64,000 nt of DNA from Actinomycetes bacterium (GCA_038246545.1 JBBRVW010000025.1:3864-67863); one strand, 5' to 3'. Shown: positions 397-16,745, counted from the stretch's first letter. The notes: generated from the letters alone by a model not told the origin. Made by a program: numbers and translations.

Positions 397-1338
397 CTAC
401 CGGCGGCGCTTGGTGCTGCCGCCGCGGTCGCGCTGGACCCGGTGACCAGCGACGGCGGCAAGCGTCGCCTCGAGCGCTGCCCGCGTCTCGGCGGTGGTCT
501 GCTGGGCGACCCCGACGAACATGAAGTCGACCAGGGTCAGCTGCGCGAGACGGCTCGCCATCGCGCCGCTGCGGAACGTGGTCTCGCGCACAGCCGTGGT
601 GAGCACGTGGTCGGCCACCTCGACGATGGGAGAGCGCGGGAAGTTGGTGAGGGCGACGGTGGTCGCTCCGCTACGGCGGGCCTGAGCGAGCGCGTCGATG
701 GTGTCGGACGTGACGCCGGTGTGCGAGATGCCGATCGCCACGTCGCCGGGCTGCAGCAGGGCGGCGCTGGTCAGGGCGATGTGGGTGTCGGACCAGGCGA
801 AGGCGATCTGACCGATGCGGTGGAGCTTCTGCTGGAAGTCCATCGCGACGAACGCGCTGGCCCCCACGCCGTACACATCGATGCGTCGGGCGGCGACGAG
901 CGCGTCGACCACGGCCTGCAACGCCGCGACGTCCAGGTGGGACGCCGTCTCCTCGACCGCCCGGGCGTCGGCGAAGGCGATCTTCTCGACGATCGCCGCG
1001 AGGTCGTCGCCAGGACCGATGTCGCTGCCGACCACGCGCACACCGTTGTCCGCCCGGCCGGACTCGGTGGCCAGGGTCAGGCGGAGCTGCGGGTAGCCGG
1101 ACAGGCCGAGGGTCCGGCAGAACCGGATGACCGTGGTCTCCGAGGTTGCGCACTTCTGCGCCAGCTCGGTGATCGTGCTGGCGGCGACCGCCCGCGGGTC
1201 CTCGAGCACCTCGTGCGCCACCCGCCGCTCGGAGAGCGACAGGGACGGCAGGATGGCGCGCAGCCGCACGGCCAGCGAGGCAGGACCCTGGCCGTCAGGG
1301 GACGACGGGGTGGCATCGGCCTTCGCGGCTCCGGACAT
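397..1338 (-). CDS. MurR/RpiR-family transcriptional regulator (HTH_6 + SIS sensor domain)
   Basis: 313-aa ORF. HTH segment STITELAQKCATSETTVIRFCRTLGLSGYPQLRL is followed by SIS-like VYGVGASAFVAMDFQQKLHRIG...GISHTGVTSDTIDAL. It flanks the amino-sugar genes. Confidence 0.9.
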   Translation of the reverse strand: MSGAAKADATPSSPDGQGPASLAVRLRAILPSLSLSERRVAHEVLEDPRAVAASTITELAQKCATSETTVIRFCRTLGLSGYPQLRLTLATESGRADNGVRVVGSDIGPGDDLAAIVEKIAFADARAVEETASHLDVAALQAVVDALVAARRIDVYGVGASAFVAMDFQQKLHRIGQIAFAWSDTHIALTSAALLQPGDVAIGISHTGVTSDTIDALAQARRSGATTVALTNFPRSPIVEVADHVLTTAVRETTFRSGAMASRLAQLTLVDFMFVGVAQQTTAETRAALEATLAAVAGHRVQRDRGGSTKRRR

Positions 1339-1356
1339 GAAGAAAAGTTACAGCGG

Positions 1357-2727
1357 TCAGGTCGCCGACGGCGAAGAACCCGCGAGGCCGCCGCCGTACG
1401 GGCCGTACAGCAGGTGCTCACGTCGCCTGGAGTCGAACGCGGCCAGCTCGTCCTGCCACGCGGCCACGACCTCGTTGGTCGATGCGCCGGCGTCGACCAT
1501 CGTCCGGAACCTCGTCGAGCCGGTCAGCTTGTCGATCCAGTTGTCCGAACGCCAGGCGAAGTCAGATCCGTAGATCCTCTTGGCCGCCACGATCATGGCG
1601 GTGCCGGTGCGCAGGGCGTCGAAGGTCGACGGGTCGGTCACCTGCAGCTGCACGCCCGCGCAGGACTTGTTGACGTGCTTGGAGAACGTCGGCGTGAAGT
1701 AGGCCTCCCGGATCAGCACTCCCGGATGCTTCTGGTCGCGCAGCTCCTGCGCCCACCGCTCGTCGAGGTACGGCGCGCCGACCAGCTCGAACGGCCGGGT
1801 GGTGCCCCGGCCCTCGGACAGGTTGGTCCCCTCGAACATGCAGGTGCCGGGGTAGACCAGCGCGGTGTCGGGGGTCGGCATGTTGGGCGACGGCAGGACC
1901 CATGGCAGTCCGGTGTCGGCGTACGCCTGCCGGCGGTCCCAGCCACGCATCCGCACCACGTCGACCTTCAGCGGCTGGTCGGTCTCGTCCGGGAGGTACT
2001 CCGCGGCGAAGAGCAGGGCCAGCTCACCGACGGTCATGGCGTGCTGCTGGCAGATCTCACGGCGCCCGACAAACGTCGCGAACGCCCGGTCGAGCACCGG
2101 GCCGCGCGGCGCGCGTCCGGTCGTCGGGTTGGGCCGGTCCAGGACGACGAAACGCTTGCCGGTCACGGCGGCCGCGACCATGCAGTCGTACATCGTCCAG
2201 ATGTAGGTGTAGAACCGCGCACCGGCGTCCTGGATGTCGAACACCATCGTGTCCACGCCGGAGCGACGGACGATGTCGGCCAGCGCGTCGCCGCTCTTCA
2301 GGTAGGTGTCCCAGACGGTCAGCCCGGTGCGCTCGTCGACGTAGCTGCCCTCGGAGCCGCCGGCCTGTGCCGTGCCCCGGAACCCGTGCTCCGGTCCGAA
2401 GACGGCCACCAGATCCACCTGGTTCGAGGCCGCCATCACATCGACCTCGTGGGTCAGGTCCGGCAGCACCCCGGTCGGGTTGGTGACGATGCCCACCTTC
2501 TGACCGCGGAGCACGTCGTAACCGCTGGAGATCAGCTCCTGGGCACCGGTCCGCACCGGCCGGCCGCCGCTCGGCGCGGTGGCCGCCGCGGCCGGGCCGG
2601 CCAGTGTCGGTCCGGCGGCCACTCCTGCGGCCGCGGCACCCAGGGCGCCGAGAAAGCCCCGTCGGCCGAGGCCGGGCGGCCGGGTCTGCGTGTGGGTCGG
2701 GTCGGTCATGGTGTGCTCCTGACTCAT
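1357..2727 (-). CDS. DUF1343 family exo-beta-N-acetylmuramidase-like protein (NamZ/YbbC-like), TAT-secreted
   Basis: 456-aa ORF. Twin-arginine signal GLGRRGFLGALGAAAAG. DUF1343-like core GIVTNPTGV...FGPEHGFRG...VFDIQDAGARFYTYIWTM...VLDRPNP. ATGA start/stop overlap with the upstream GH3 gene. Confidence 0.85.
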   Translation of the reverse strand: MSQEHTMTDPTHTQTRPPGLGRRGFLGALGAAAAGVAAGPTLAGPAAAATAPSGGRPVRTGAQELISSGYDVLRGQKVGIVTNPTGVLPDLTHEVDVMAASNQVDLVAVFGPEHGFRGTAQAGGSEGSYVDERTGLTVWDTYLKSGDALADIVRRSGVDTMVFDIQDAGARFYTYIWTMYDCMVAAAVTGKRFVVLDRPNPTTGRAPRGPVLDRAFATFVGRREICQQHAMTVGELALLFAAEYLPDETDQPLKVDVVRMRGWDRRQAYADTGLPWVLPSPNMPTPDTALVYPGTCMFEGTNLSEGRGTTRPFELVGAPYLDERWAQELRDQKHPGVLIREAYFTPTFSKHVNKSCAGVQLQVTDPSTFDALRTGTAMIVAAKRIYGSDFAWRSDNWIDKLTGSTRFRTMVDAGASTNEVVAAWQDELAAFDSRRREHLLYGPYGGGLAGSSPSAT

Positions 2728-4505
2728 GGCGTGGACGTCAGGCCGTGGCCGAACGGGTAGAGCGTCGTGCCCGGGTCACTGGCTGTGGGGATGGCGACCG
2801 GCAGCAGGCCGGCGGGCTGGACCTCGCCGAAGAGCACCCGGGCCAGGGACTCGATGGAGATCGCGGTGGTGGAGTAGGTCGCGAGGTAGGTCGGCGCGTC
2901 GGTGAAGTACGCGATGTCGTAGGGGTCGCGCACGGCCACCACGACGACAGGTTTGCCGGTGGCCAGCAGCTGCTTGACCAGCTTCTGCTGACCGGCACTC
3001 GTCCAGGCCCTGTTCGTCGCGACCACGACCTGGTCGCTGGTCTGCGCCTGCGCCACGGCAGCGGTGATGGTGGCGTCGCTCGGCGCGGTCCCGGTGTTGT
3101 ACGCCGTCGCGGCCGGTCCGCGGGCGGAGATCCGCTCGGCGAGGCCGGGGGTGACACTGGCGCCGGTGACGAGGACCTTCTGGGCGCCCTTGGCGAGCGG
3201 CAGCGTGTCGGCGTCGTCCTTCACCAGGGTGACGGTGGCGTCGGTGATCTCCTGGGCCCGCTGCTGGTGCGCAGCGGTGCCTACCAGGGAGCTGACCTTG
3301 GACTCGTCGACGAAGACGTTCTTGGGCTTGAAGAGACCGCGAGTCATCTTCAGCTGCAGCACGCGGTGCACCGACTGGTCGATCCGGTCCTCGGTGAGCT
3401 CACCGGAGCGCACGGCGTCGAGCACGGCGTTGTAGGCGATGTCCAGCTTGCCGGGGGCGGGCATGAGCAGCTGGTCGACACCGGCCTTCAGCGCCAGCAC
3501 CGGGATGCGGTCGTCGCCGAAGCCGTCGCGCACGCCCTGCATGGTCAGGGCGTCGGTGATGACCACGCCGTCGTAGCCCATCTCGCCCCGCAGGATGTCG
3601 GTGATGATCGGCTTCGAGAGGGTCGCCGGCACCTCCGACGGGTCGAGCGCGGGGACGACGATGTGGGCCGTCATGATCGCGTCGATTCCGCGGCTGATCG
3701 CGGCCCGGAAGGGCGGGGCGTCGATGCGCTCCCACTCCGCGCGGGTGTGGGTGATGATCGGCACGCCGTAGTGGCTGTCGGTCGCCGTGTCGCCGTGTCC
3801 GGGGAAGTGCTTCGCGGTGGCGGCCACGTTCGCGCTCTGGTAGCCGTCGACGCTCGCCGCCACCAGGTCGGACACCAGCGACGGGTCGGAACCGAACGAC
3901 CGCACACCGATGACCGGGTTCTGCGCGTTCACGTTGACGTCGGACACGGGTGCGAAGTTCTGGTTGATGCCGATGGCCCACAGCTCCTTGCCGCTGATCC
4001 GGGCCGCGTCATAGGCATTGGGCACGCTGCGTCCCGCGCCCAGCGCCATGTTGCCCGGCAGCTGGGTGGCCGGCGGTCCGACCCGGGTGACCACCCCGTG
4101 CTCCTGGTCGGTGGTGATCTGCAAGGGGATGCCGGACCGCTGTGAGGTCGCCACCCGCTGCAGGCCGTTGGACAGGCCGGCGATCTGCTCGGGGTTCGCC
4201 ACGTTGTTCGACCAGGCGAAGTAGATGACTCCGCCGACGTGGTACTTCTCGATCAGCTCCTTGCCGTTCGCGACACCGAGGTCCTGCTCGTTGTGCGCGA
4301 CGTCGGCCGGGTCGGTCGTGTCGGCGGTCTGCCCGTAGGCGTAGGTGACGAAGAGCTGCCCGACCTTCTCCTCCAGCGTCATCCGCTTGATGATCTGGTC
4401 GATCCGGTCGCTGCTGGCCGCCGCCGGTCCACCCACAGAGGTCAGCGCGACCGCACAGGCCACGAGCAGGAGCAGAGGTCGGAGTCGGGCGCGGATCTCG
4501 GGCAC
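2724..4505 (-). CDS. Glycoside hydrolase family 3 beta-N-acetylhexosaminidase (NagZ-like), secreted/lipoprotein
   Basis: 593-aa ORF. Signal peptide with lipobox-like LLLLVACAV. GH3 motifs include KHFPGHGDTATDSHYG and ITDALTMQG. A C-terminal GH3 domain is present. Confidence 0.9.
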   Translation of the reverse strand: MPEIRARLRPLLLLVACAVALTSVGGPAAASSDRIDQIIKRMTLEEKVGQLFVTYAYGQTADTTDPADVAHNEQDLGVANGKELIEKYHVGGVIYFAWSNNVANPEQIAGLSNGLQRVATSQRSGIPLQITTDQEHGVVTRVGPPATQLPGNMALGAGRSVPNAYDAARISGKELWAIGINQNFAPVSDVNVNAQNPVIGVRSFGSDPSLVSDLVAASVDGYQSANVAATAKHFPGHGDTATDSHYGVPIITHTRAEWERIDAPPFRAAISRGIDAIMTAHIVVPALDPSEVPATLSKPIITDILRGEMGYDGVVITDALTMQGVRDGFGDDRIPVLALKAGVDQLLMPAPGKLDIAYNAVLDAVRSGELTEDRIDQSVHRVLQLKMTRGLFKPKNVFVDESKVSSLVGTAAHQQRAQEITDATVTLVKDDADTLPLAKGAQKVLVTGASVTPGLAERISARGPAATAYNTGTAPSDATITAAVAQAQTSDQVVVATNRAWTSAGQQKLVKQLLATGKPVVVVAVRDPYDIAYFTDAPTYLATYSTTAISIESLARVLFGEVQPAGLLPVAIPTASDPGTTLYPFGHGLTSTP

Positions 4506-4679
4506 GGTGCCTCCAGGGGCGGGGGGAGCGCGCCGGGGGCGGCGCGAGTCGGCAGGGGGACGACGACGAGCGGGCTCGTCCGAAACCCAGCAACGTTAGT
4601 TTGCTGATTCGCGTAAGTTACCTACACTACGACCGTGGTCAACGGTCGAACCAGCCAAGAACGGCCCGAACTGACCGCG

Positions 4680-5645
4680 TCAGGCGCAGAGCCGGGCGTG
4701 CGTGTCCGGCGTGGCCAGTGCCGGATCGAGCGCGGCGAGCGCCAGCCAGGCCGCTCCCCCGACACCGGTGCGGGCGGGCAGCGCGACGCCGGCGAAGCGG
4801 GCCGAGAGCAGCCCCCGCAGCACGGCCCCGACCGTGGACTGGTCGCCGGCCAGGCTTCCCGCGAGGACGATCGGGGTGTTCTCGGCCGGGTCCCGGATCA
4901 GACCGAGGGTCGCCACCAGTGCAGCCGCGGCGCATTCGACTATCGACTGCGCCTGCGGGTCCCCGGCACGGGAAGCGGCAGTGACCAACGGGGCGAGCGC
5001 CGAGAGCTGGACACCGGGACGCGAGTTCACCACCTGGATCACCCGGTCGCGCTGACCGTCGCGCCCCGGCCGGGCAGCGCCCAGCTCGCGCAGGACGGAG
5101 TCGACCAGCGGCCCAGGAGGCGTCCCCGCGTCCAACGTGCGCAGGGTGGCGCGGACGGCTTCGCGGCCGAGCCAGAAACCCGAGCCGTCGTCCCCGAGCA
5201 GCCAGCCGTGACCGTCCGCGGTCCGCGTCAGCCGGCGGTCGATCAGCGAGCCTGCCGCCGCACCGGTGCCGGCGACCAGGACCGCGCCGTCGGCCTCTGG
5301 CGTGCCGCTCGCAAAGGCCACCTCGAGGTCAGGAACGTAACCCGGGTCGCAGGTGAGTCCGGCCGCGGCCCACACCCGGCCGAAGTGGGTGGCCACTGCA
5401 GGGGTGCGCAGCGCCGAACCCCCTGCGACGCCCAGCACCGACGCCTGCACCCGGGTGGGGTCCACCCCGGCGAGCGCGGTGCGCAGAGCGTCCGCGAGTG
5501 CGGCCGCGGCACCCGTCGGGTCGGTGGTCGGGTTACCGCCACCGGTGACGCCCCGACCGTGCTCCTGCCCGTCGGCGCCGACCACAAGGATGCGCGTCGA
5601 GGTACCGCCGAGGTCGCCGCCGAGGGCCAGGATCTCCGAACGCAC
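4680..5645 (-). CDS. BadF/BadG/BcrA/BcrD-type ATPase family sugar kinase (GlcNAc or MurNAc kinase-like)
   Basis: 321-aa ORF. N-terminal ASKHA phosphate-1 motif LGGDLGGTSTRILV, and later GTGAAAGS. Lies in an amino-sugar context. Confidence 0.8.
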   Translation of the reverse strand: MRSEILALGGDLGGTSTRILVVGADGQEHGRGVTGGGNPTTDPTGAAAALADALRTALAGVDPTRVQASVLGVAGGSALRTPAVATHFGRVWAAAGLTCDPGYVPDLEVAFASGTPEADGAVLVAGTGAAAGSLIDRRLTRTADGHGWLLGDDGSGFWLGREAVRATLRTLDAGTPPGPLVDSVLRELGAARPGRDGQRDRVIQVVNSRPGVQLSALAPLVTAASRAGDPQAQSIVECAAAALVATLGLIRDPAENTPIVLAGSLAGDQSTVGAVLRGLLSARFAGVALPARTGVGGAAWLALAALDPALATPDTHARLCA

Positions 5646-5751
5646 AAGTACTCCGATTCAGGCGAATGTCGGTTAGTGTCGCACCGATTCGCCACGGCCC
5701 ACGTCCCCCTCGGCGCATCACGCGCTCACGTCACAGGAGGCCACGACTCCG

Positions 5752-6558
5752 ATGGTTGACATGTCCGGTACTGCCGAAGCCGGCGGCGGCGCCAATGCTG
5801 CGGCGACCACGGTCAGCGCCCAGGCCTACCTCGCTGCGCTCACGCCCATCATGACCAAGGTGGCCGAGCAGGCCGACGGCCCGGTGCAGGAGGCAGCCGA
5901 CCTCATCGTGGCGTCGTTGTGCGCCGGCGGCGTCGTCCAGGCATTCGGATCCGGGCACTCCGAGGCGTTGGCGATGGAGATCGCCGGTCGCGCGGGTGGG
6001 CTGGTGCCGACCAACCGGATCGCGTTGCGCGACGTCGTCACCGTCGGCGGCGAGTCGCCCGACGTACTCGGCAACAAGCACCTCGAGCGGGACCCGTCGA
6101 TCGCCCACCGGCTGTACGACCTCGCCAACGTGTCCGAGTCCGACATCTTCGTGGTCGCGTCGAACTCCGGCGTGAACGGCTCGATCGTCGAGCTGGCGCA
6201 ACTGGTGAAGCAGCGCGGGCACCGGCTGATCGCCATCACGTCGTTCACCCAGACCGCGAGGGTCGACTCCCGGCACCCGTCCGGCACGAAGCTGGTGGAC
6301 CACGCCGACGTCGCACTCGACAACGGCGCTCCGTACGGCGATGCCGTGCTGCCGCTGCCCGGCGGCGGGACCGTCTGCGCGGTCTCGTCGATCACCGGTG
6401 CCCTGGTGGCACAGCTGATCGGCGCCGAAGTCGTTCGGCGGCTGACCGAGGCGGGCGAGACACCGCCGGTCTACCTGTCGGCCAACGTCCCCGGCGGGGA
6501 CGAGCACAACAGCAGCCTCGAAGCCCGCTACGCCGGCCGGATTCGCCGTACGGCCTGA
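5752..6558 (+). CDS. SIS domain protein (UPF0309-like sugar-phosphate isomerase/binding fold)
   Basis: 268-aa ORF. SIS pattern VQAFGSGHSEALAMEI...IFVVASNSGVNGSIVELA. Divergent from the BadF-type kinase. Confidence 0.8.
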   Translation: MVDMSGTAEAGGGANAAATTVSAQAYLAALTPIMTKVAEQADGPVQEAADLIVASLCAGGVVQAFGSGHSEALAMEIAGRAGGLVPTNRIALRDVVTVGGESPDVLGNKHLERDPSIAHRLYDLANVSESDIFVVASNSGVNGSIVELAQLVKQRGHRLIAITSFTQTARVDSRHPSGTKLVDHADVALDNGAPYGDAVLPLPGGGTVCAVSSITGALVAQLIGAEVVRRLTEAGETPPVYLSANVPGGDEHNSSLEARYAGRIRRTA

Positions 6559-6646
6559 CTCGGTAGTTCATCACCAAGGAGAGAGCACCCGAACGCTTGC
6601 TCCCGCTGACTGTTCCTCCAACACACCAACCCGGAAGGCAGACACC

Positions 6647-8062
6647 ATGACCACCGAGAAGAAGGCAGTCGACCGCCGCAGCTTCATGAAAGGCGCGCTA
6701 GCGACGGCGGCAGTCTTTCCGTTGAGCTCCGCGCTGGCGGCGTGCGCGGGCAACAGCAACGACTCCGCCAAGGACACGAAGGGAGGCGGCAAGGTCAGCG
6801 AGAGCAATCCGTTCGGCATGGCTGACAAGTCGTCGGTCGACGCGGTGATCTTCGACGGTGGCTACGGCACCGACTACGTCGCGTTCGCCGCCGCGCTGAT
6901 GGAGAAGAACCACGCCGGCTCGTCGGTCAAGGTCTCCCCGACGACCAAGATCGCCCAGGAGCTGCAGCCGCGCTTCGTCGGTGGCAACCCGCCCGACCTG
7001 ATCGACAACTCCGGTGAGAACGCGATCGGGTTCAGCACGATCCTCGACCAGGTCGAAGACCTCAAGGACGTCCTCGACGCGAACACCCTCGAGGGGACGA
7101 CGATCCGGGACACGCTGTTCGGTGGCGTCGAGGAACCGGGCACCTACGACGGCAAGCTGGCCGCGCTCAACTACGTGCTGACGGTCTATGCGGTCTGGTA
7201 CTCCGCGAGCCTGTTCGAGGAGAACAGCTGGACCCCGCCGAAGACGTGGGACGAGGCGATGGCCCTGGGCGCCAAGGCCAAGGCGAAGAACAAGTACCTG
7301 TTCGTGTGGGGCAAGGAGGCGGCGACGTACTACCAGACCCTCGCGATCGGGTCGGCGATCAAGGAAGGCGGCGACGAGGTCCGGCTCGCGCTGGAGAACC
7401 TGGAAGCCGACTGCTGGTCGCACCCTGCAGTCCAGGCCGTCTTCACGGGCATGGGCGAGGTCGTCAAGGCGGGCTACGTCAAGCCCGGCGGAGCGGGCAC
7501 CCAGTTCACTGCCGCTCAGGCCCAGTGGAGCAACAACCAGGACGCCCTGCTGTACCCGTCAGGGTCCTGGATCGAGAACGAGATGAAGGACCAGACCAAG
7601 CCCGACTTCCGGATGACCGGGCTCGCCGAGATGACGGTGACGGCGGACTCCTCGATGCCGTACGCGGCTCTGCACAGCGCCTCCGGTGAGCCGTTCGTGA
7701 TCCCGTCGCAGGGCAAGAACGTGGCTGGGGGCAAGGAGCTGCTCCGGACGATGCTCTCCAAGGAGGCCGCCACGAACTTCGCCAAGACCAAGCTCGCGCC
7801 GACCATCGTCAAGGGCACTGTTCCGGCTGACGGCTTCGGCTCGACGGCACTGGTCTCGCAGAACGATCTGCTCAGCGCCGCCGGGTCCGACGTCTTCACC
7901 TGGAAGTTCGTCGACCTGTACGGCATCAACGCCGACCAGCTCGTCATCTGGAACAGCTTCCTGGCCGGTAAGGCCGACGTCGCGGCGCTGACCTCGGGAC
8001 TGCAGAAGATCAGCGACAAGATCCGTGAGGACGACTCGATCAAGAAGATCAAGGTCACATGA
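6647..8062 (+). CDS. ABC transporter sugar-binding lipoprotein (GlcNAc/chitobiose NgcE-like)
   Basis: 471-aa ORF. Signal DRRSFMKGALATAAVFPLSSALAACAGN with a lipobox Cys. Family-1 solute-binding protein composition. Stop overlaps the start of the next gene (ATGA). Confidence 0.85.
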   Translation: MTTEKKAVDRRSFMKGALATAAVFPLSSALAACAGNSNDSAKDTKGGGKVSESNPFGMADKSSVDAVIFDGGYGTDYVAFAAALMEKNHAGSSVKVSPTTKIAQELQPRFVGGNPPDLIDNSGENAIGFSTILDQVEDLKDVLDANTLEGTTIRDTLFGGVEEPGTYDGKLAALNYVLTVYAVWYSASLFEENSWTPPKTWDEAMALGAKAKAKNKYLFVWGKEAATYYQTLAIGSAIKEGGDEVRLALENLEADCWSHPAVQAVFTGMGEVVKAGYVKPGGAGTQFTAAQAQWSNNQDALLYPSGSWIENEMKDQTKPDFRMTGLAEMTVTADSSMPYAALHSASGEPFVIPSQGKNVAGGKELLRTMLSKEAATNFAKTKLAPTIVKGTVPADGFGSTALVSQNDLLSAAGSDVFTWKFVDLYGINADQLVIWNSFLAGKADVAALTSGLQKISDKIREDDSIKKIKVT

Positions 8063-9057: not shown

Positions 9058-9917
9058 CGACCGCGACACAACAACCCGCCTCGGGGACCGCCGGGCAGAA
9101 GACCGTCACCGCCGTCTCCCATGTCGTCCTCAGCGTGTGGACGATCCTGATCATCGTCCCCCTGCTGTGGACCCTGATGTCGTCGTTCAAGACGAGCAAG
9201 GAGATCTTCGCCTCACCTTTCACGCTGCCGGCACAGTGGAACTTCGACAACTACGTCTCCGCGTGGACCACGGCAGGCATCGGCAGGTTCTTCGCCAACA
9301 CCGTCATCGTGGTCGGATTCGCACTGGTCATCGTCATGGTGCTGGGAGCGATGTGCGCCTACGTGCTCGCCCGCTTCTCCTTCTTCGGCAGCAGGCTCAT
9401 CTACTACCTGATGCTCGCCGGCCTGACGTTCCCCGTCTTCCTGGCTGTCGTCCCGCTGTTCTTCGTGCTGAAGGACATCGGTCTGCTGAACACCCTCCCC
9501 GGGCTCATCATCACCTACGTGGCGTTCGCGCTCCCGTTCACGGTGTTCTTCCTGTTCCCGTTCTTCCGAGCGCTTCCCGACGAGATCGCCGAGGCCGCCG
9601 AGATCGACGGGGCGGGCGAGTGGCGCACGTTCTTCCAGGTCATGCTGCCCATGGCCAAGCCGGGAATGGCATCGGTCGCCATCTTCAACTTCCTCGGCCT
9701 GTGGAACCAGTTCCTGCTTCCGGTCGCCCTGAACACCAACCGCGAGAACTACGTCCTGTCCCAGGGCATGGCCTCGTTCGCCTCGCAGGCCGGCTACAAC
9801 GTCGACTTCGGCCGGTTGTTCGCCGCCGTCGTGATCACCGTCGTCCCGGTCCTGATCGTCTACGCCATCTTCCAACGACAGCTCCAGGGCTCGGTCACCG
9901 CGGGAACCATGAAGTAG
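9054..9917 (+). CDS. ABC sugar transporter permease (MalG/NgcG-like)
   Basis: 287-aa multi-TM ORF. EAA loop EIAEAAEIDGAGEWRTFFQVMLPMAKPG. ATGA overlap with the preceding permease. Confidence 0.9.
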   Translation: MTTATQQPASGTAGQKTVTAVSHVVLSVWTILIIVPLLWTLMSSFKTSKEIFASPFTLPAQWNFDNYVSAWTTAGIGRFFANTVIVVGFALVIVMVLGAMCAYVLARFSFFGSRLIYYLMLAGLTFPVFLAVVPLFFVLKDIGLLNTLPGLIITYVAFALPFTVFFLFPFFRALPDEIAEAAEIDGAGEWRTFFQVMLPMAKPGMASVAIFNFLGLWNQFLLPVALNTNRENYVLSQGMASFASQAGYNVDFGRLFAAVVITVVPVLIVYAIFQRQLQGSVTAGTMK

Positions 9918-9936
9918 CTGCCATCCCGATGCGTCG

Positions 9937-11925
9937 ATGAGCGAGCTGCGTCTCGGGACGCTGACCATGCCGACGGCCGAGGTCGGTCCGGTCAACCCGT
10001 TGCCGCCGCTGTTCTCCGCGGCTGACCTGCACACGGTCGTCGACCTCGGCGAGGCCGATGCCGAGATGCGTCGCAACATCGGCTACGGCCGGGTGCGCTC
10101 GGTGCTGCCGTACCTGGACCAGGACGGTTACGGCCGCGACCGCCGGCCGACCGGGCACAGAGTGGCCGTGCTGGAGAACGATGTCCTGCGGGCCACGTTC
10201 CTCCTCGACCTCGGCGGCCGGCTGTGGTCCTTGGTGCACAAGCCCACCGGTCGGGAGCTGCTGCACCGGAACCCGGTCCTCCAGCCGGCGAACCTCGCCC
10301 TGCGGAACGCGTGGTTCGCCGGCGGTGTCGAGTGGAACATCGGGACCATCGGTCACTCCCCCACGACGTGCGAGCCGGTGCACGCCGCCCGGGTGTTGCA
10401 GCCGGACGGCACGCCGGTGCTGCGGATGTACGAGTTCGAGCGGTTGCGCGAGGTCGTGTTCCAGGTCGACGCGTGGCTCCCCGCGGGCTCCCCCGTGCTC
10501 CTGGTCCACGTCCGCGTCGTCAACCCCAACGACGTCGAGACGCCGATGTACTGGTGGACCAACATCGCGGTACCCCAGGCGGACGACGTCCGAGTGCTCG
10601 CTCCTGCCGACGGGGCCTGGCAGTTCGCCTACGACAGCCCCTTGCGACGCGTGCCGATCCCGGTCCTCGACGGACTGGACCGTACGTACACCACTCGCGC
10701 GTCCGCGGCCGCCGACTACTTCTTCGCGATCGCCGACAAGGAGCGGCGCTGGATCGCCGCACTGGACGGCCGCGGCGCGGGACTGGTGCAGACCTCCACC
10801 GACCGGCTCCGCGGCCGCAAGCTGTTCCTGTGGGGGAGGAGCCCCGGCGGCGACCACTGGCAGGAGTGGCTCGCGCAACCCGGCCGGGAGTACCTCGAGA
10901 TCCAGGCCGGCCTGGCTCGTACCCAGCTGGAGCACCTGCCCATGCCGGCACGGGCGTCGTGGTCGTGGGTCGAGGCGTACGGCCTGCTCCAGAGCGACGC
11001 GTCCGCCGTCCACGGCGACCACTGGTCGCGAGCACGAGCGGCCGTGTCGCGTGACCTGGAGGAGCTGATCCCTCGCGCCGAGCTCGACGGGGCGCTGACC
11101 GCCGCGGCTGCCTGGGCCGACGCCGCCCCGGTCGAAGCGCTGAACCGAGGGTCGGGGTGGGGAGCGCTCGAGCACATGGTGCGGGAGCGGGACGGCGACG
11201 ACTCGCTGTCCCTGCCCGGCACGCCGTTCGGCGACGAGACGCTCGCTCCTGCCCAGGAGGCCTGGGTCGAGCTCGTGCGAACCGGCCGGATGCCGTCGCC
11301 ACCGGCCGAGCAGGCACCGTCCTCGTACCAGACGAGCAGCCGGTGGATGCCGCTGCTCGAGGCGGCGGACGGGTGGTTGCCGACGCTGCACCTCGGGGTA
11401 GTCCTCGCCCACGCCGGAGACCTGCAAGGAGCCACCGATGCCTGGGTCCGTTCGCTCTCGGCCGAGCCGACGGCGTGGGCTGGGCGCAACCTGGCGGCCT
11501 TGGCCCGAGCCGACGGTGACCTCGAGCTGGCGCTCCGCCGCTACCGAGCTGCGCTCGTCCTTCACGAAGACGTCGCAGCGCTGAGGCGTGAGCTGGTCGA
11601 CACGTTGCTGGCCGCCGGCGATGGCGCGCAGGCGCTCGCGGTGATTGATGCCGCACCGGGCGAGCAACGCCTCCTGGGCCGCTTCCGGCTCGCCGAGATC
11701 CGCGCAGCGTTGCTGACCGGTGACCTCGACCGTGCCGGCCGGATCCTCCGGGACGGCGTGGTGCTGCCCGACGTGCGCGAGGGTGAGCCGGCGCTGCACG
11801 AGGTGTGGTTCGACTACCAGGCAGCGCTCGCGGCACGCGAGCAGCGTCGCCCGGTCGACGCCGACCTCGAGGCGCAGGTGCGTGCCGCCGTACCCATCCC
11901 GCAGGACCTCGATTTCCGGATGTAG
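9937..11925 (+). CDS. DUF5107-like protein with C-terminal TPR-like repeats
   Basis: 662-aa ORF directly after the permeases. N-terminal part (…NAWFAGGVEWNIGTIGHSPTT…MYWWTNIAV…) resembles DUF5107 by eye. C-terminal Ala/Leu-rich helical repeats. Confidence 0.7.
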   Translation: MSELRLGTLTMPTAEVGPVNPLPPLFSAADLHTVVDLGEADAEMRRNIGYGRVRSVLPYLDQDGYGRDRRPTGHRVAVLENDVLRATFLLDLGGRLWSLVHKPTGRELLHRNPVLQPANLALRNAWFAGGVEWNIGTIGHSPTTCEPVHAARVLQPDGTPVLRMYEFERLREVVFQVDAWLPAGSPVLLVHVRVVNPNDVETPMYWWTNIAVPQADDVRVLAPADGAWQFAYDSPLRRVPIPVLDGLDRTYTTRASAAADYFFAIADKERRWIAALDGRGAGLVQTSTDRLRGRKLFLWGRSPGGDHWQEWLAQPGREYLEIQAGLARTQLEHLPMPARASWSWVEAYGLLQSDASAVHGDHWSRARAAVSRDLEELIPRAELDGALTAAAAWADAAPVEALNRGSGWGALEHMVRERDGDDSLSLPGTPFGDETLAPAQEAWVELVRTGRMPSPPAEQAPSSYQTSSRWMPLLEAADGWLPTLHLGVVLAHAGDLQGATDAWVRSLSAEPTAWAGRNLAALARADGDLELALRRYRAALVLHEDVAALRRELVDTLLAAGDGAQALAVIDAAPGEQRLLGRFRLAEIRAALLTGDLDRAGRILRDGVVLPDVREGEPALHEVWFDYQAALAAREQRRPVDADLEAQVRAAVPIPQDLDFRM

Positions 11926-11960
11926 TGGCTCGGCCACGCACCACTGGTGACCCTGGCGGG

Positions 11961-12797
11961 TCAGCGCATGGCCAGCAGCGCCAGCAACCGTGCCGCCTCG
12001 GCGGCTAGGGCGTCGCGGGCAGTGCCCAGGTACCGCCGGGTGTCGACCACGTCCGGGTCCTCGGCAAGGTGCTGACGCAGGGCGGTGGTGAAGGCGTTGT
12101 TCAGGTGCGTGGCGATGTTCACCTTGGTCATCCCGGCACGGACGGCCGCCACCAGATCGGCGTCCGGGACACCGGAGGCACCGTGCAACACCAGTGGCAC
12201 CGGCACTCGTTCGTGGATCGCTGCGATCAGCTCCATGTCCAGCTGTGCCGTGCGGCTGGTCATCGCGTGCGAGGACCCGACGGCGACCGCCAGCGCATCG
12301 ACCCCGCAGTCCGCCACGAACTGCGCCGCAGCAGCCGGGTCGGTGCGCACGCCGGGGGCGTGCACGCCGTCCTTGCCGCCGATCTCGCCGAGCTCCGCCT
12401 CGACGTCGACGCCCGCGGCATGGCAGCGCTGCACGACCGCGCGGGTGGCGGTGCGGTTGGCCTCGTCACCGAGCCGCGACCCGTCGTACATCACCGAGGT
12501 GAAGCCGAGCGCGACAGCCTCGTCCACCAACGGCTCGCTGACCGCGTGGTCGAGGTGCAGCACGCACGGCACCGAAGCCCGCTCCGCGAGAGTGCGGGTC
12601 GCCAGCGTGACCGGCGCCAGCGAACCGTGGTAGCGCACGGCGTTCTCGCTGATCTGCAGCACGACCGGCAGGCCGGTCTGCTCGGCGGCCGCGACCAGCG
12701 CCTCAGCGTGCTCGAGCTGGATGACGTTGAACGCGCCGACACCACGCCCGGCGGCGGCGGCGACCGCGAGCACCTCGTCGAGCCGGGCGAGGGTCAC
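11961..12797 (-). CDS. Class II fructose/tagatose-bisphosphate aldolase family protein
   Basis: The ORF extends to 12809, but the GTG at 12797 overlaps the ROK gene stop (GTGA). Motifs AFNVIQLEHAEALVAAAE...VLHLDHA...AVAVGSSHAM...LVLHGASG. Confidence 0.85.
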   Translation of the reverse strand: MTLARLDEVLAVAAAAGRGVGAFNVIQLEHAEALVAAAEQTGLPVVLQISENAVRYHGSLAPVTLATRTLAERASVPCVLHLDHAVSEPLVDEAVALGFTSVMYDGSRLGDEANRTATRAVVQRCHAAGVDVEAELGEIGGKDGVHAPGVRTDPAAAAQFVADCGVDALAVAVGSSHAMTSRTAQLDMELIAAIHERVPVPLVLHGASGVPDADLVAAVRAGMTKVNIATHLNNAFTTALRQHLAEDPDVVDTRRYLGTARDALAAEAARLLALLAMR

Positions 12798-13711
12798 AGC
12801 GAGTCCCACGCGAGGCAGGCGGCGCCCAGGCAGCCGGCCCGTTCGCCGAGCCCAGCCTGCTCCAGCCGGGGCGGGCGCTGGAAGGTCAGGCGGCTCGCGA
12901 CGTCCGCGCGCAGCGGGTCCAGGAGAGCGGCGCCGCTCTCGGCGAGGCCGCCACCGATCAGGACGAGGTCGACCCCGGTGATGGTCACGGTGGCGACGAT
13001 CGCCTCCGCCAGTGCGGCGGTGGCCCGGGCCCAGACGGCCGTCGCGTGGGGGTCACCGGCAGACGTGCGGACGGCGATCTCCTCGGCCGATGCAGCTCCA
13101 CCCGTCCGCGCGGCGAACTCCCGTTCTATCGCGGCCGCCGAGGCGATCACCTCGAGGCACCCGGTCGCCCCGCAGCCGCAGGCCGGCCCGGTCGGGTCGA
13201 TGACGAGGTGCCCCAGCTCACCGGCCCGGCCGTCGGCGACGATCACCGCGCCGTCGAGCAGCAGTGCCCCGGCGATGCCGGTACCTACGGGGAGGAACAG
13301 CGCGTGCCGCGCACCGCGGGCAGCACCCAGGCGCGACTCGGCAAGCAGGCCGGCGCGCACGTCGTGGCCGACGACGGTCGGCACACCGAGCAACGACGCG
13401 ACCGAGTCGCGTATCGGCAGGTCCCGCCAGCCGAGGTTCACCGAGTACCGGCCGACACCGCGCACCTCGTCGACCAGGCCCGGGACGACGACGCCGCAGC
13501 CGACCAGCCGGCTGGCGCGGTCGTCCTTCGCCGCCGTGGCCAGCAGGTCGGTCACAGTCGCATGCACGACGGCGCCGAAGTCGGCGGCGATGTCCTTCGG
13601 GGTGGGCGCCGTGACGGCGGCCAGGGTGTCGTAGGCGGCGGTCACCAGGGCAGCCTTGATCCGGGTGCCCCCGACGTCGACGGCCGCCACCACGTCGGAC
13701 ACCTCGGCCAC
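12794..13711 (-). CDS. ROK family sugar kinase (no N-terminal HTH)
   Basis: 305-aa ORF. VDVGGTRIKAAL phosphate-1 motif at the extreme N-terminus. ROK zinc motif GHLVIDPTGPACGCGATGCLE. Confidence 0.9.
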   Translation of the reverse strand: MAEVSDVVAAVDVGGTRIKAALVTAAYDTLAAVTAPTPKDIAADFGAVVHATVTDLLATAAKDDRASRLVGCGVVVPGLVDEVRGVGRYSVNLGWRDLPIRDSVASLLGVPTVVGHDVRAGLLAESRLGAARGARHALFLPVGTGIAGALLLDGAVIVADGRAGELGHLVIDPTGPACGCGATGCLEVIASAAAIEREFAARTGGAASAEEIAVRTSAGDPHATAVWARATAALAEAIVATVTITGVDLVLIGGGLAESGAALLDPLRADVASRLTFQRPPRLEQAGLGERAGCLGAACLAWDSL

Positions 13712-13714
13712 GTC

Positions 13715-14638
13715 CTACTGCTGAGAGGCGGCCGGAGGCAGGACCACCGATCGGGTCAGGTGTCGCGGATGGTCCGGGTCGAGGTCCCCCTGCCGGGCCT
13801 TCGCGAGGCATAGCCGGTGCACCCGCACGAGCTCGGCGAGCGGGTCGATGTCCCTGCTCTCGAAGTGCGCACCGGTGCCGCGCACCTGCTCCGCCAGGCC
13901 CGGCGGCACCTCGCCGAGCGCCCAGGTGACCCGACCCGCGGTGGCGATGCTCACCGGTCCGTGCCGGTACTCCATCGCCGGGTACGACTCGGTCCAGAAC
14001 TGGGCCGACTCGCGCAGCTTGAGGGCCGCCTCCGCGGCCAGACCGATGGTCCAGCCCCGCCCCACGAAGGTCACCTGCTCGGCGTCGGCCACTCCGGCGA
14101 GGCACTGAGCCTCGTCCTCGGCCAGCACGGCGCGGGCGTCGGCGGTCGCGGCCGACAGGTCCTCGCCCAGTGAGGCCCGGAGCAGCGCCACGGTGGAGGT
14201 GGCGAACCGGGTCTGCACGACCGACTTCTCGTCGACCTCGGGCAGCAGGATGGTCCGGTCGGCCAGCTCCGTGACCGGCGTACCGGGCGTGGCGACGATC
14301 GCCGTCGTGACGAGGTCGCGGCCGCGCAGCGACGTCAGGACGTCGATCACCTCGGTGGTGGTACCGGACCGGGTGATGACCAGCACGGCATCGTAGCTGC
14401 GGTCGAGCCGGTGCTCGCTGGCAGCGAACGCGTCGGTCTCGCCGTGACCGGACTGCTCGCGGCGTGCGGCATAGACCTGGGCCATGAAGTACGACGTGCC
14501 GCAGCCGACGACCGCCACCCTCGCGCCGACCGCCGGCAGGGCGTCGGCGAGCTCCGGCAGCCGGGCGACGACGCCGGCCCAGTCGTCAGGCTGTCCGGCG
14601 ACCTCCCGCTGGAGGTCGCTGTCCGGGTTGAACGTCAC
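13715..14638 (-). CDS. SIS-domain aminosugar-phosphate isomerase/deaminase-like protein (GlmS C-terminal / AgaS / FrlB type)
   Basis: 307-aa ORF with two SIS-like halves. VAVVGCGTSYFMAQVYA...VLVITRSGTTTEV. No glutaminase domain. Confidence 0.8.
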   Translation of the reverse strand: MTFNPDSDLQREVAGQPDDWAGVVARLPELADALPAVGARVAVVGCGTSYFMAQVYAARREQSGHGETDAFAASEHRLDRSYDAVLVITRSGTTTEVIDVLTSLRGRDLVTTAIVATPGTPVTELADRTILLPEVDEKSVVQTRFATSTVALLRASLGEDLSAATADARAVLAEDEAQCLAGVADAEQVTFVGRGWTIGLAAEAALKLRESAQFWTESYPAMEYRHGPVSIATAGRVTWALGEVPPGLAEQVRGTGAHFESRDIDPLAELVRVHRLCLAKARQGDLDPDHPRHLTRSVVLPPAASQQ

Positions 14639-14704
14639 GGCGGCTCCCTGGCACTGGGTACGTTCGTCTTTCGACCGGTTTCGACCCTAGCCGAGCAACG
14701 GGAG

Positions 14705-15946
14705 ATGATGGCTCGCGTGACCGTTCCCCAGCCGATGCTCCTGACCGGGCGCCTGGTTACTGGCTCGACCATCATCGACGACGGCGTCCTGGTCGTGGAG
14801 GGTGACGCGATCCGGTACGCCGGGCCGGCGTCCGAGCTGCCGGCTCCCTGGCGGGACGTGCCGGTCTTCGATGCCCAGCCGGGCCGGCAGACCTTGCTGC
14901 CCGGACTGGTCGACGCGCACTGCCACGGCGGCGCGGGCGGCGAGTTCGGCGCGGCTACCGACTCGGCCGCGACCGCGGTCCGCCACCACCACGTGCACGG
15001 CACGACGACCGTGCTCGGCAGCCTGCTCTCGGCCACTGCTGACGAGATGGTGGCGGGGGTGCGTACGTGCGGCGCGCTGGTGGCCGGCGGGGATCTGGCC
15101 GGCATCCACCTGGAGGGCCCCTTCCTGTCCCACGAGCGTCGGGGGGCGCAGGACCCCGCGGCGCTCACCGACGTCGACCCGTCGCTCGTCGAGGCTGTCC
15201 TGCTGGCCGCCGAGTCGGTCGGGGCGCCCGGCGCGGTCGCGCAGATGACCTTCGCACCCGAACGCCGCGGCGCTGACCGGTTGCCCGCACTTCTGGGGGG
15301 TCACGGCATCCTGCCCGCCCTGGGGCACACCGACTGCGACGCCGCGACGGCACGGGCGTCGCTCCGGTCGTCCCTCGATTCCGCGCCGCGTGGCGGGCGA
15401 CCGCTGGTCACGCACGTCTTCAACGGCATGCCTCCGTTGCACCACCGGGATCCCGGCCCGGTAGCCGCCTGCCTGGCGCAGGCCGGCCGGGGCGAAGCAG
15501 TGCTCGAGGTCATCGGCGACGGCGTGCACCTGTCTGCGGAGACCGTGCGGATGCTGTTCGACCTGGTGGGACCGCAGGCGATCTGCCTGGTCACCGACGC
15601 GATGGCGGCCAGCGGCATGCCGGACGGCAGCTACACACTGGGCGGGCGGGACGTCCTTGTCGCCGACCGGACGGTGCGGCTGGCCGAAGGCGGCTCGATC
15701 GCCGGCGGCGTGGCCACTCTGCTCGATGTCGTGCGCTGGTGCGTGGCCGAGGCCGGCATCCCCTTGCTGGACGCCGTCACGGCGGCCTCGGTCACACCCG
15801 CACAGACCCTCGGTCTGACCGGCGTCGGGTCGCTCGCGGCCGGACAGCAGGCCGATGTCGTCCTGGTGGACGACGACCTGCAACTGAGGCGAGTGATGCG
15901 CCGCGGCAGCTGGCTCGCACCCGACGTCCCCGACAGCGACCGGTAA
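14705..15946 (+). CDS. nagA: N-acetylglucosamine-6-phosphate deacetylase
   Basis: Real start is taken at ATG 14705, inside the longer ORF 14411..15946. Motifs [46 protein letters not shown]. Divergent from the SIS/ROK/aldolase genes. Confidence 0.9.
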   Translation: MMARVTVPQPMLLTGRLVTGSTIIDDGVLVVEGDAIRYAGPASELPAPWRDVPVFDAQPGRQTLLPGLVDAHCHGGAGGEFGAATDSAATAVRHHHVHGTTTVLGSLLSATADEMVAGVRTCGALVAGGDLAGIHLEGPFLSHERRGAQDPAALTDVDPSLVEAVLLAAESVGAPGAVAQMTFAPERRGADRLPALLGGHGILPALGHTDCDAATARASLRSSLDSAPRGGRPLVTHVFNGMPPLHHRDPGPVAACLAQAGRGEAVLEVIGDGVHLSAETVRMLFDLVGPQAICLVTDAMAASGMPDGSYTLGGRDVLVADRTVRLAEGGSIAGGVATLLDVVRWCVAEAGIPLLDAVTAASVTPAQTLGLTGVGSLAAGQQADVVLVDDDLQLRRVMRRGSWLAPDVPDSDR

Positions 15947-15962
15947 GGAGGGCCGCAACGCC

Positions 15963-16745
15963 ATGGAGGTCGTCATCGTTCCGGATGCCGCCACGATCGG
16001 CGAGCTCGCCGCCGACGCGGTCGTCGCCCTGCTGGCGCGAAAGCCGACAGCTGTCCTCGGGCTGGCGACCGGGTCCAGCCCGCTGGTGGTGTACGCCGAG
16101 CTGATCCGTCGGTACGACGCAGGCGAGGTGAGCTTCGCGCGCAGTCGCGCGTTCCTGCTGGACGAGTACGTCGGGCTGCCGGCCGAGCACCCGCAGCAGT
16201 ACCGGTCGGTGATCCGTCGCGAGCTGGAGGTGCGGGTCGACTTCCCCCCTGACGCGATCGCCGGTCCGGACGGCCTGGCCGACGACCTGCCTGCGGTGTG
16301 CTCCGACTACGAGCGAGCACTCACCGACGCGGGAGGAGTCGACCTGCAGCTGCTGGGCGTCGGGTCGGACGGTCACGTCGCCTTCAACGAGCCTGGCTCC
16401 TCGCTGAGCTCGCGGACACGGATCAAGACCCTGACTGCTCGCACCCGTGCAGACAACGAGCGGTTCTTCGAGCCGCCGGACGAGGTGCCGCACCACGTGC
16501 TCACCCAGGGGCTGGGCACCATCCTCGACGCGCGGCACCTCGTGCTGATCGCGCGGGGTTCGGGCAAGGCGTCGGCCGTGCATCAGCTGGTCGAGGGCCC
16601 TTTGTCCGCGTTCTGCCCGGCCTCAGTGCTGCAGCTGCACCCGCACGCGACCGTTCTGCTGGACGACGACGCGGCAGGGCAGCTCCGGCTCGCCGACTAC
16701 TACCGGGAGACGTACGCCGACAAGCCCCACTGGCAGGGGCTGTAG
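15963..16745 (+). CDS. nagB: Glucosamine-6-phosphate deaminase
   Basis: 260-aa ORF. LGLATGSSP, FLLDEYVGL, LLGVGSDGHVAFNEPGSS. Confidence 0.95.
   Translation: MEVVIVPDAATIGELAADAVVALLARKPTAVLGLATGSSPLVVYAELIRRYDAGEVSFARSRAFLLDEYVGLPAEHPQQYRSVIRRELEVRVDFPPDAIAGPDGLADDLPAVCSDYERALTDAGGVDLQLLGVGSDGHVAFNEPGSSLSSRTRIKTLTARTRADNERFFEPPDEVPHHVLTQGLGTILDARHLVLIARGSGKASAVHQLVEGPLSAFCPASVLQLHPHATVLLDDDAAGQLRLADYYRETYADKPHWQGL

Follow-up and report, generated by a model that had tools for sequence, protein, structure and literature searches.

Gene content of the locus

We analysed a 64,000-nucleotide stretch of DNA (the window; GCA_038246545.1, JBBRVW010000025.1:3864-67863) from an Actinomycetes bacterium. 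Positions 397-16745 of the window carry 14 densely packed genes, with no gap of gene size between them, that are predicted to serve the salvage of amino sugars from peptidoglycan. They include a homologue of the exo-β-N-acetylmuramidase NamZ and none of MurQ, the lyase (etherase) that acts on the lactyl ether of N-acetylmuramic acid 6-phosphate (MurNAc-6-P). The locus DNA is about 70% G+C, and coding frames were chosen from domain matches together with third-position G+C. All 14 genes have the content and the coordinates given in an initial annotation of the window.

Four genes at one end lie on the minus strand. These encode an RpiR/MurR-type regulator with HTH_6 and SIS domains (397-1338); the NamZ-family (GH171) homologue (1357-2727; NamZ_N 241 bits, NamZ_C 190 bits), with a twin-arginine signal (RRGFLG) that predicts export; a NagZ-like GH3 glycosidase (2724-4505) with N and C domains of GH3 and a Sec-type signal peptide, also predicted to be exported; and a BadF/BcrAD-family sugar kinase (4680-5645; PF01869; NagK_SO3507, 87 bits) from the family of N-acetylglucosamine (GlcNAc) and MurNAc kinases. 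They diverge across 106 bp from five plus-strand genes. The first of these encodes a UPF0309 single-SIS enzyme (5752-6558; NF002805, 300.5 bits, cut-off 135). It is followed by an NgcE-type substrate-binding protein of the GlcNAc/diacetylchitobiose family (6647-8062; TIGR03851, 620.5 bits, cut-off 399.65) with a lipobox, by NgcF-like (8059-9057) and NgcG-like (9054-9917) permeases of an ATP-binding cassette (ABC) importer, and by a 662-aa protein with DUF5107 and TPR domains (9937-11925; PF17128, 127.6 bits). No signal peptide was found in the kinase, UPF0309 or DUF5107 proteins, which are predicted to be cytoplasmic.

Convergent with this group is a minus-strand trio: a class II ketose-bisphosphate aldolase of the FbaA/GatY/KbaY type (11961-12809; TIGR00167, 221.6 bits, cut-off 215.6), a ROK-family sugar kinase (12794-13711) and a double-SIS protein resembling the GlmS isomerase domain and GlmD (13715-14638), whose nearest relatives are archaeal GlmD-type glucosamine 6-phosphate (GlcN-6-P) deaminases. 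Two plus-strand genes complete the locus, encoding a NagA-type N-acetylhexosamine-6-phosphate deacetylase (14735-15946), which at 212.5 bits falls just below the TIGR00221 cut-off of 225.65, and the GlcN-6-P deaminase NagB (15963-16745; NF001684, 400 bits, cut-off 326).

Absence of MurQ and other MurNAc enzymes

The genome comprises 4.05 Mb in 67 contigs and is 98.9% complete. A whole-genome hidden Markov model (HMM) search with the MurQ model (TIGR00274/NF003915) returned a best score of 27 bits against a cut-off of 302; within the window the best match was the SIS domain of RpiR, at 25 bits. The initial annotation had seen the MurQ pattern in none of the three SIS proteins of the locus, and these scores bear it out. 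As a control for the search, MurQ was detected in all six control genomes for which matches were reported. A tblastn search of the whole genome with six actinobacterial MurQ queries recovered no pseudogene, its only matches being fragments around SIS motifs in RpiR and UPF0309. No remnant of murQ was found when the search covered the window, the preceding 3.9 kb of its contig and all other parts of the genome; the junctions of the NamZ block are intact.

The possibility that murQ is present but was missed, through an assembly gap or because the copy is very divergent, seems to us hardly credible. The fragmentation of the assembly leaves some space for it, whereas the completeness of the genome, the NamZ-block junctions free of any murQ remnant, the performance of the search on the control genomes and the parallel lack of murQ in 11 sister genomes (see below) all speak against it. 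These results also dispose of the idea, put forward in the initial annotation, that MurQ is encoded elsewhere in the genome.

Other routes for MurNAc were examined across the same genome. AnmK and MupG were not found. The anabolic AmgK/MurU bypass, which the initial annotation had also raised, was rejected because no adjacent APH/NTP-transferase gene pair resembling AmgK/MurU occurs in the genome, a weak test given that such genes need not adjoin. The genome encodes no known MurNAc-digesting enzyme.

Co-occurrence of NamZ and MurQ

We sampled 301 genomes across the class, of which 35 are NamZ-positive. Outside the family of the window, every NamZ-positive genome of the class also has MurQ (28 of 28), often adjoining NamZ, as do three further NamZ-positive genomes of the phylum that belong to other classes, so that MurQ accompanies NamZ in 31 of 31 sampled genomes outside the family. 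A published account likewise states that the two usually co-occur (PMC8054146).

Within the family the pattern is different. Among 39 genomes, mostly uncultured, 16 are NamZ-positive and only 4 of these have MurQ. UPF0309 is present in 11 of the 12 NamZ-positive genomes that lack MurQ; 10 of these have it on the NamZ contig, at a distance of 3-6 kb from NamZ. The NamZ proteins of the MurQ-less genomes are 93-96% identical among themselves, which places these genomes in one clade and suggests about one loss event. No conclusion hinges on the unpublished genomes G308 (family census) or G035 and G262 (class census).

Ratios of nonsynonymous to synonymous substitution (dN/dS) within the MurQ-less clade are 0.16-0.19 for NamZ, 0.16-0.25 for RpiR, 0.20-0.33 for GH3 and 0.13-0.27 for UPF0309. 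These values indicate that NamZ, GH3 and the MurR-type regulator are under purifying selection in the clade, and the NamZ ratio implies that this gene is not decaying. In one of the sister genomes a second copy of NamZ contains an in-frame TAG, and in another NamZ is present as two overlapping frames (G306:C2:427102-427668; G305:C1:9031-9658).

Loss of murQ from an ancestral supercluster

More than 500 loci related to UPF0309 were retrieved, mostly from Kribbella, Micromonosporaceae and soil metagenome-assembled genomes (MAGs), and the window proteins were mapped onto 100 of them. The mapped loci share a recurrent core (the cassette) in which the BadF kinase stands opposite UPF0309, in places with an RpiR gene, together with an NgcE-family binding protein and two permeases. 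The kinase is divergent from UPF0309 in most of the roughly 100 loci, the exceptions being single copies of the Micromonospora type.

In five loci from one group of MAGs (L042, L044, L045, L046 and L059) the cassette core directly abuts a NamZ-MurQ module like that of Bacillus subtilis. The order in L044 is GH3-EEP-NamZ-AmiE-RpiR-MurQ and then BadF, which diverges from UPF0309, an NgcE-like gene, two permease genes, double SIS, ROK and, further on, aldolase; here AmiE is an AmiE-type amidase of the β-lactamase fold and EEP a phosphoesterase. The other four loci have the same RpiR-MurQ and BadF-UPF0309 core as far as their contigs reach, with variable presence of EEP and AmiE, and in L045 a NagA-like gene stands between ROK and aldolase. 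The extra module genes were confirmed with Pfam in G087, G081 and G018. UPF0309 of the murQ-adjacent group is 69-79% identical to that of the window. In sister lineages UPF0309, double SIS, ROK, NagA and aldolase form one operon with an NgcE-type importer.

Because UPF0309 and the double SIS-ROK-aldolase trio occur alongside an intact murQ, and in one operon with the importer, they look like old partners of the importer and not substitutes for MurQ. Judged by gene order, the two SIS proteins, the trio and DUF5107 would all be long-standing importer companions that were not recruited to replace MurQ. The initial annotation had suggested that an SIS protein, possibly with the trio, opens another route by which MurNAc or a different amino sugar is used. 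The operon with the NgcE-type importer in sister lineages favours the amino-sugar part of that proposal; no sign of a takeover of the etherase step was seen, the operon adjoining an intact murQ and the motifs of UPF0309 being unchanged (see below).

A further locus, L049, has the arrangement of L042, to which its GH3, RpiR and NamZ are 88%, 86% and 81% identical, with only 83 bp between RpiR and the kinase gene at the place where L042 has murQ. MurQ was not found elsewhere in the 2.2-Mb MAG that contains L049 (G325). L049 thus appears to record an independent deletion of murQ in the same gene setting, which would bring the number of deletions to at least two.

The remaining NamZ-block genes of the window have clear counterparts in the NamZ-MurQ modules. 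The window RpiR is 59-72% identical to RpiR of MurQ-containing modules, compared with 45-51% for RpiR of stand-alone UPF0309 cassettes, and is therefore assigned, by sequence and by its position, as an orthologue of the regulator that NamZ-MurQ modules contain in other actinobacteria, although it scores below the MurR equivalog cut-offs (209.7 against 378 bits and 128.7 against 408 bits). GH3 is orthologous to GH3 of the same modules. Its earlier description as NagZ-type holds for the GH3 domains and the general resemblance to NagZ but not for equivalog status, the score with NF003740 being 175.9 bits against a cut-off of 207. NamZ is 55-69% identical to NamZ of MurQ-containing modules, about as much as its neighbours GH3 and RpiR. 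Compared with the B. subtilis murQ-murR-murP-amiE-nagZ-namZ operon (PMC8054146), the window shares NamZ and a NagZ-like GH3 beside a MurR/RpiR regulator, and sister actinobacterial loci also carry an AmiE-type amidase and MurQ. It differs in lacking MurQ, AmiE and the phosphotransferase system (PTS) component MurP, in having an NgcE-type ABC importer and a BadF kinase for uptake and phosphorylation, and in the addition of UPF0309, DUF5107 and the SIS-ROK-aldolase unit.

These comparisons bear on the proposal that NamZ and GH3 of this clade no longer act on peptidoglycan, and that the genes form a standard locus for chitin oligosaccharides or GlcNAc, where no MurNAc is ever produced. The binding protein scores above the NgcE equivalog cut-off, NagA and NagB adjoin, and orthologues of AmiE and EEP were not found in the 98.9% complete genome, all of which would suit such a locus. 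The NamZ family, however, is known solely as exo-muramidases (PMC8054146), the window NamZ resembles that of the MurQ modules as closely as the adjoining GH3 and RpiR do, and two sister genomes (G132 and G274) still have AmiE between RpiR and NamZ. We consider this proposal improbable.

UPF0309 is a distant homologue of NagS

The window UPF0309 matches PDB 3CVJ (BH3325; 1e-33) and PDB 9EOL (NagS/SCO4393; 1e-29) in sequence, and its model superposes on both with TM scores of 0.79-0.80. NagS is the GlcNAc-6-P dehydratase of Streptomyces, which cannot do without H53, R64, E94 and D179 and for which S91 and N228 are important; it takes off the 3-OH of GlcNAc-6-P via deprotonation at C2 (PMC12680351). 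True NagS orthologues are at least 58.7% identical to SCO4393 and lie in divergent synteny with dmdR1, whereas homologues at 26-36% identity have no or negligible activity on GlcNAc-6-P; the ligand set tested with NagS and its homologues did not include MurNAc-6-P (PMC12680351).

The window protein belongs to the same family as NagS (NF002805) and keeps H53, R64, E94, D179 and N228, as well as the phosphate-binding serines. In place of S91 it has an aligned Asn beside a two-residue insertion before the LER motif, and SLSGRN of NagS reads SNSGVN. It is about 33% identical to SCO4393, below the orthologue threshold, and its neighbours are the BadF kinase and NgcE in a kinase/importer cassette, not dmdR1. 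Sequence and synteny thus point to a distant NagS homologue and not to a NagS orthologue.

After its own family, the next structural neighbours of the UPF0309 model are GmhA and MurQ, the TM scores to MurQ structures being 0.54-0.58. An hhalign comparison of the UPF0309 profile with an actinobacterial MurQ profile gave a probability of 95.9% and set the LER glutamate on the glutamate of the MurQ E-D motif, whereas the acidic position of the MurQ A-E-L motif falls on R-A-G-G; we take the E-D and A-E-L motifs to contain the catalytic acidic residues of the MurQ active site. UPF0309 has the SIS fold in common with MurQ (TIGR00274; PDB 4LZJ, 4S12), and one glutamate of the catalytic region is aligned, but UPF0309 lacks the GKRP-type C-terminal lid domain and does not conserve the second acidic motif.

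From SIS chemistry, we infer that aldose-ketose isomerization is blocked on a C2-acetamido sugar, which leaves epimerization at C2 or β-elimination of the C3 substituent as plausible reactions. By analogy, UPF0309 is most likely either a C2 epimerase interconverting GlcNAc-6-P and N-acetylmannosamine 6-phosphate (ManNAc-6-P), both of them accepted by NagS, or a C3 β-eliminase like MurQ. NanE was not found in the genome, and its absence leaves room for the epimerase without testing that idea.

The β-elimination option raises the possibility that UPF0309 acts on the lactyl ether of MurNAc-6-P as a second lyase, independent of MurQ, or has sufficient side activity of that kind. After import, MurNAc would receive a 6-phosphate from the BadF kinase, UPF0309 would turn the product into GlcNAc-6-P, and murQ would be redundant, explaining its repeated loss. 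Removal of the 3-OH by NagS corresponds to the elimination part of MurQ catalysis, with a worse leaving group, and the window protein combines homology to NagS, with five residues of the catalytic set retained, with the MurQ profile alignment and the structural proximity to GmhA and MurQ. The failure of distant NagS homologues to dehydrate GlcNAc-6-P, and the place of MurNAc-6-P outside the ligand set, also suit a different substrate. So does the gene context: in the ancestral layout murQ directly adjoins the kinase gene, which is next to UPF0309, murQ was lost twice and only in this cassette-adjacent setting while it was kept in all 31 other NamZ-positive genomes, and the MurR-type regulator is retained.

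Against a lyase function, intact murQ coexists with UPF0309 in the five murQ-adjacent loci, and MurQ is kept in all eight NamZ-positive genomes of the f12 family that carry UPF0309 copies. The motifs G-S-G-H-S, G-R-A-G-G-L, L-E-R, S-N-S-G-V-N-G, G-D-A and S-A-N-V-P-G-G do not differ between the MurQ-less clade and the murQ-adjacent group, so the idea that UPF0309 was altered after the loss of murQ was dropped. The cassette is common in genomes without NamZ, and an acidic position of MurQ is replaced by R-A-G-G, as described above. Taking both sides together, we regard a lyase activity of UPF0309 as possible but rather unlikely.

The genome contains a second UPF0309 paralogue on another contig (C12:75506-76228; L007 9492-17250), 35% identical to that of the window. 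It is co-directional with genes for a GH84 β-N-acetylglucosaminidase, a ROK-type regulator, a GH4 glycosidase, another BadF kinase, a Gfo/Idh/MocA oxidoreductase and a zinc-type dehydrogenase, and the UPF0309-GH84-oxidoreductase part is conserved in G217, where NagA adjoins. In G087, a family member that has kept murQ (L008/L009, G087:C1:3660000-3698000), murQ has as neighbours a GntR/UTRA regulator and a PTS operon of the mannose family (EIIA, EIID, EIIB). This operon also includes a NagA-like gene and UPF0309 of a third type, and a gene for an AgaS-like double-SIS protein of 347 aa lies close by. The GH84 setting on C12 and the PTS/NagA setting in G087 suggest that the UPF0309 family is repeatedly tied to N-acetylhexosamine-6-phosphate routes.

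Two other settings of UPF0309 were seen. Micromonospora has a single-copy UPF0309 (L105/L091), about 70% identical to that of the window, with genes for an α/β hydrolase, DUF6328 and an acyl-CoA dehydrogenase as neighbours; this stand-alone position recalls that of NagS in Streptomyces, and the neighbours, being unrelated genes, were set aside as uninformative about function. In L010 (G056:C80), genes for a lactate permease and a γ-glutamyltranspeptidase lie between a UPF0309 paralogue and NamZ (11183-12790), an order that fits use of cell-wall D-lactate and peptide parts in that genome.

Importer, kinase and associated enzymes

The importer resembles the Streptomyces NgcEFG/MsiK system (TIGR03851) in its NgcE-type binding protein, its two permeases and an ATPase encoded elsewhere: as the initial annotation had anticipated, the locus has no ABC ATPase gene, and a MalK/MsiK-type ATPase is encoded on contig C11. 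It differs in its predicted co-transcription, judged by gene layout, with UPF0309 and DUF5107. The binding-protein sub-types of the cassettes are only 32-36% identical to each other, yet all pass the NgcE model, so the NgcE assignment does not fix the actual ligand. A swap of binding-protein type had been considered as support for import of GlcNAc alone and was dropped for the same reason. The BadF kinase is a weak match to MurK (PDB 8ZO3).

The DUF5107 protein is predicted to consist of a galactose-mutarotase-like β domain followed by a TPR-like helical repeat domain. PDB 5CD6 (BDI_1685) is its top match by both sequence and fold, followed by galactose mutarotases with TMt of about 0.6; a relationship to GH94 disaccharide phosphorylases was rejected (fold TM 0.2-0.3, rmsd >20 Å). 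Escherichia coli YphG and BDI_1685 likewise have a mutarotase-like N-terminal domain, a TPR-like domain and an adjoining sugar ABC importer, although the window protein is shorter than YphG and tied to an importer of the N-acetylhexosamine type. DUF5107 follows the importer in every family member that bears the cassette, including G210, which has no NamZ. G210 and G329 both have the cassette with DUF5107 and neither NamZ nor MurQ, and G329 also has the SIS-ROK-aldolase trio; DUF5107 also lies near the cassette in L041 and L081, and the L041 genome is without NamZ and MurQ. This distribution suggests that DUF5107 belongs with the importer and not with NamZ/NagZ, which tells against its listing, in the initial annotation, as a candidate for the missing steps. 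In two sister MAGs DUF5107 is split between two frames (L033 14004-15990; L037 14166-16146), where a frameshift or an assembly error is possible.

The double-SIS protein matches archaeal GlmD-type structures (PDB 2CB0, 6e-20; PH0510, 5e-18) and falls below the curated cut-offs for GlmD (88 against 580 bits) and NagB-II (41.6 against 430 bits), with no AgaS or FrlB model among the matches listed. The aldolase passes only the general TIGR00167 model, the specific FBA, GatY and KbaY equivalogs all being below cut-off. Together with NagA and the two kinases, the double SIS-ROK-aldolase trio looks like an Aga-like route from N-acetylhexosamine to triose phosphates.

That DUF5107 or the trio performs a new MurNAc route is, in our estimation, very improbable. 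They are the only other enzymes of the locus that have no assigned reaction, and they are cytoplasmic. The mutarotase-like sugar-binding fold of DUF5107, its association with the importer in genomes devoid of NamZ and MurQ, the closeness of the double SIS to GlcN-6-P deaminases and the presence of the trio in one operon with UPF0309 beside an intact murQ all argue against such a role.

Non-coding regions

The divergent control region between the kinase and UPF0309 genes (5646-5751) has an AGGAGG ribosome-binding site before UPF0309. Within it, a block of about 28 bp, CGGTTAGTGTCGCACCGATTCGCCACGG (5668-5695), is near-invariant in seven clade members while its flanks vary, and is flanked by an imperfect inverted repeat, GGCGAAT...ATTCGCC. 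It is a possible operator for the one RpiR protein. The kinase/UPF0309 control regions of the two clades are unrelated to each other, and no DasR-type site was obvious by eye.

The spacer between the kinase and GH3 genes (4506-4679) is AT-richer and holds GGTCAAC-GGTCGAAC repeats, making it a possible internal promoter or operator. A tandem TTTCGACC repeat lies at 14669-14686, in the spacer between nagA and the SIS-ROK-aldolase unit, and has a look-alike, GGTCAAC-GGTCGAAC, at 4637-4652 upstream of GH3 on the opposite strand. The GGTCGAA repeat was rejected as a shared operator: it occurs in 15 copies against an expectation of 7.9, a count of 15 arose in 1 of 100 shuffles, and the repeat is too short for significance.

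A proposed scavenging locus without the canonical etherase step

The locus probably derives, by rearrangement and loss of murQ, from a conserved actinobacterial supercluster that scavenges cell-wall amino sugars; the etherase step would have been lost with no new recruit, and GlcNAc would still be recovered. Outside the cell, NamZ and GH3 would release MurNAc and GlcNAc from the ends of glycan strands that are free of peptide. NgcEFG, powered by the MsiK-type ATPase, would import GlcNAc or a GlcNAc-type disaccharide, the BadF kinase would form the 6-phosphate, and NagA and NagB would carry it to fructose 6-phosphate. UPF0309, the double SIS, ROK and the aldolase would be ancestral parts of an N-acetylhexosamine-6-phosphate route. 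With the canonical etherase step given up and no newly recruited replacement, MurNAc would not be burned, or would be handled by a pre-existing side activity. We propose that NamZ has been retained because removal of MurNAc exposes the next GlcNAc.

Several observations weigh against this interpretation. The MurR-type regulator has been kept at 91-95% identity; the effector of MurR in E. coli is MurNAc-6-P, and by analogy its retention may hint that MurNAc-6-P is still made here. The within-family pattern rests on one clade and thus on about one evolutionary event, and the second loss on one unpublished 2.2-Mb MAG (G325) that comes with no completeness figure. The only places where NamZ occurred without MurQ were those in which the UPF0309 cassette directly adjoins the NamZ module, and confinement of the loss to cassette-adjacent loci fits functional cover by UPF0309 equally well as simple loss. 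Sequence-based tools cannot decide between simple loss of the step and a lyase activity of UPF0309.

What this analysis adds is the lack of MurQ from the whole genome, an ancestral supercluster in which murQ adjoins the cassette, two deletions of murQ that arose independently, and evidence of purifying selection on what remains. NamZ-type scavenging has so far been described together with MurQ, whereas this clade keeps NamZ under apparent purifying selection without a known MurNAc enzyme. The UPF0309 family is very widespread and always linked to amino-sugar kinases or importers, and we know of no reaction for it outside the Streptomycetaceae. Natural pairs of loci with and without murQ allow a direct comparison of their UPF0309 enzymes. 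If the etherase step is instead performed by an uncharacterized enzyme, the NagS-like UPF0309 family is the obvious candidate; in that tentative and less than likely case, cassette-type UPF0309, with its more than 500 related loci, would be a second family of lyases for 3-O-substituted N-acetylhexosamine 6-phosphates, and this clade and one further lineage would have dropped murQ because UPF0309 sufficed. If, as we favour, the step has simply been given up, these bacteria would mine peptidoglycan for GlcNAc alone and discard MurNAc.

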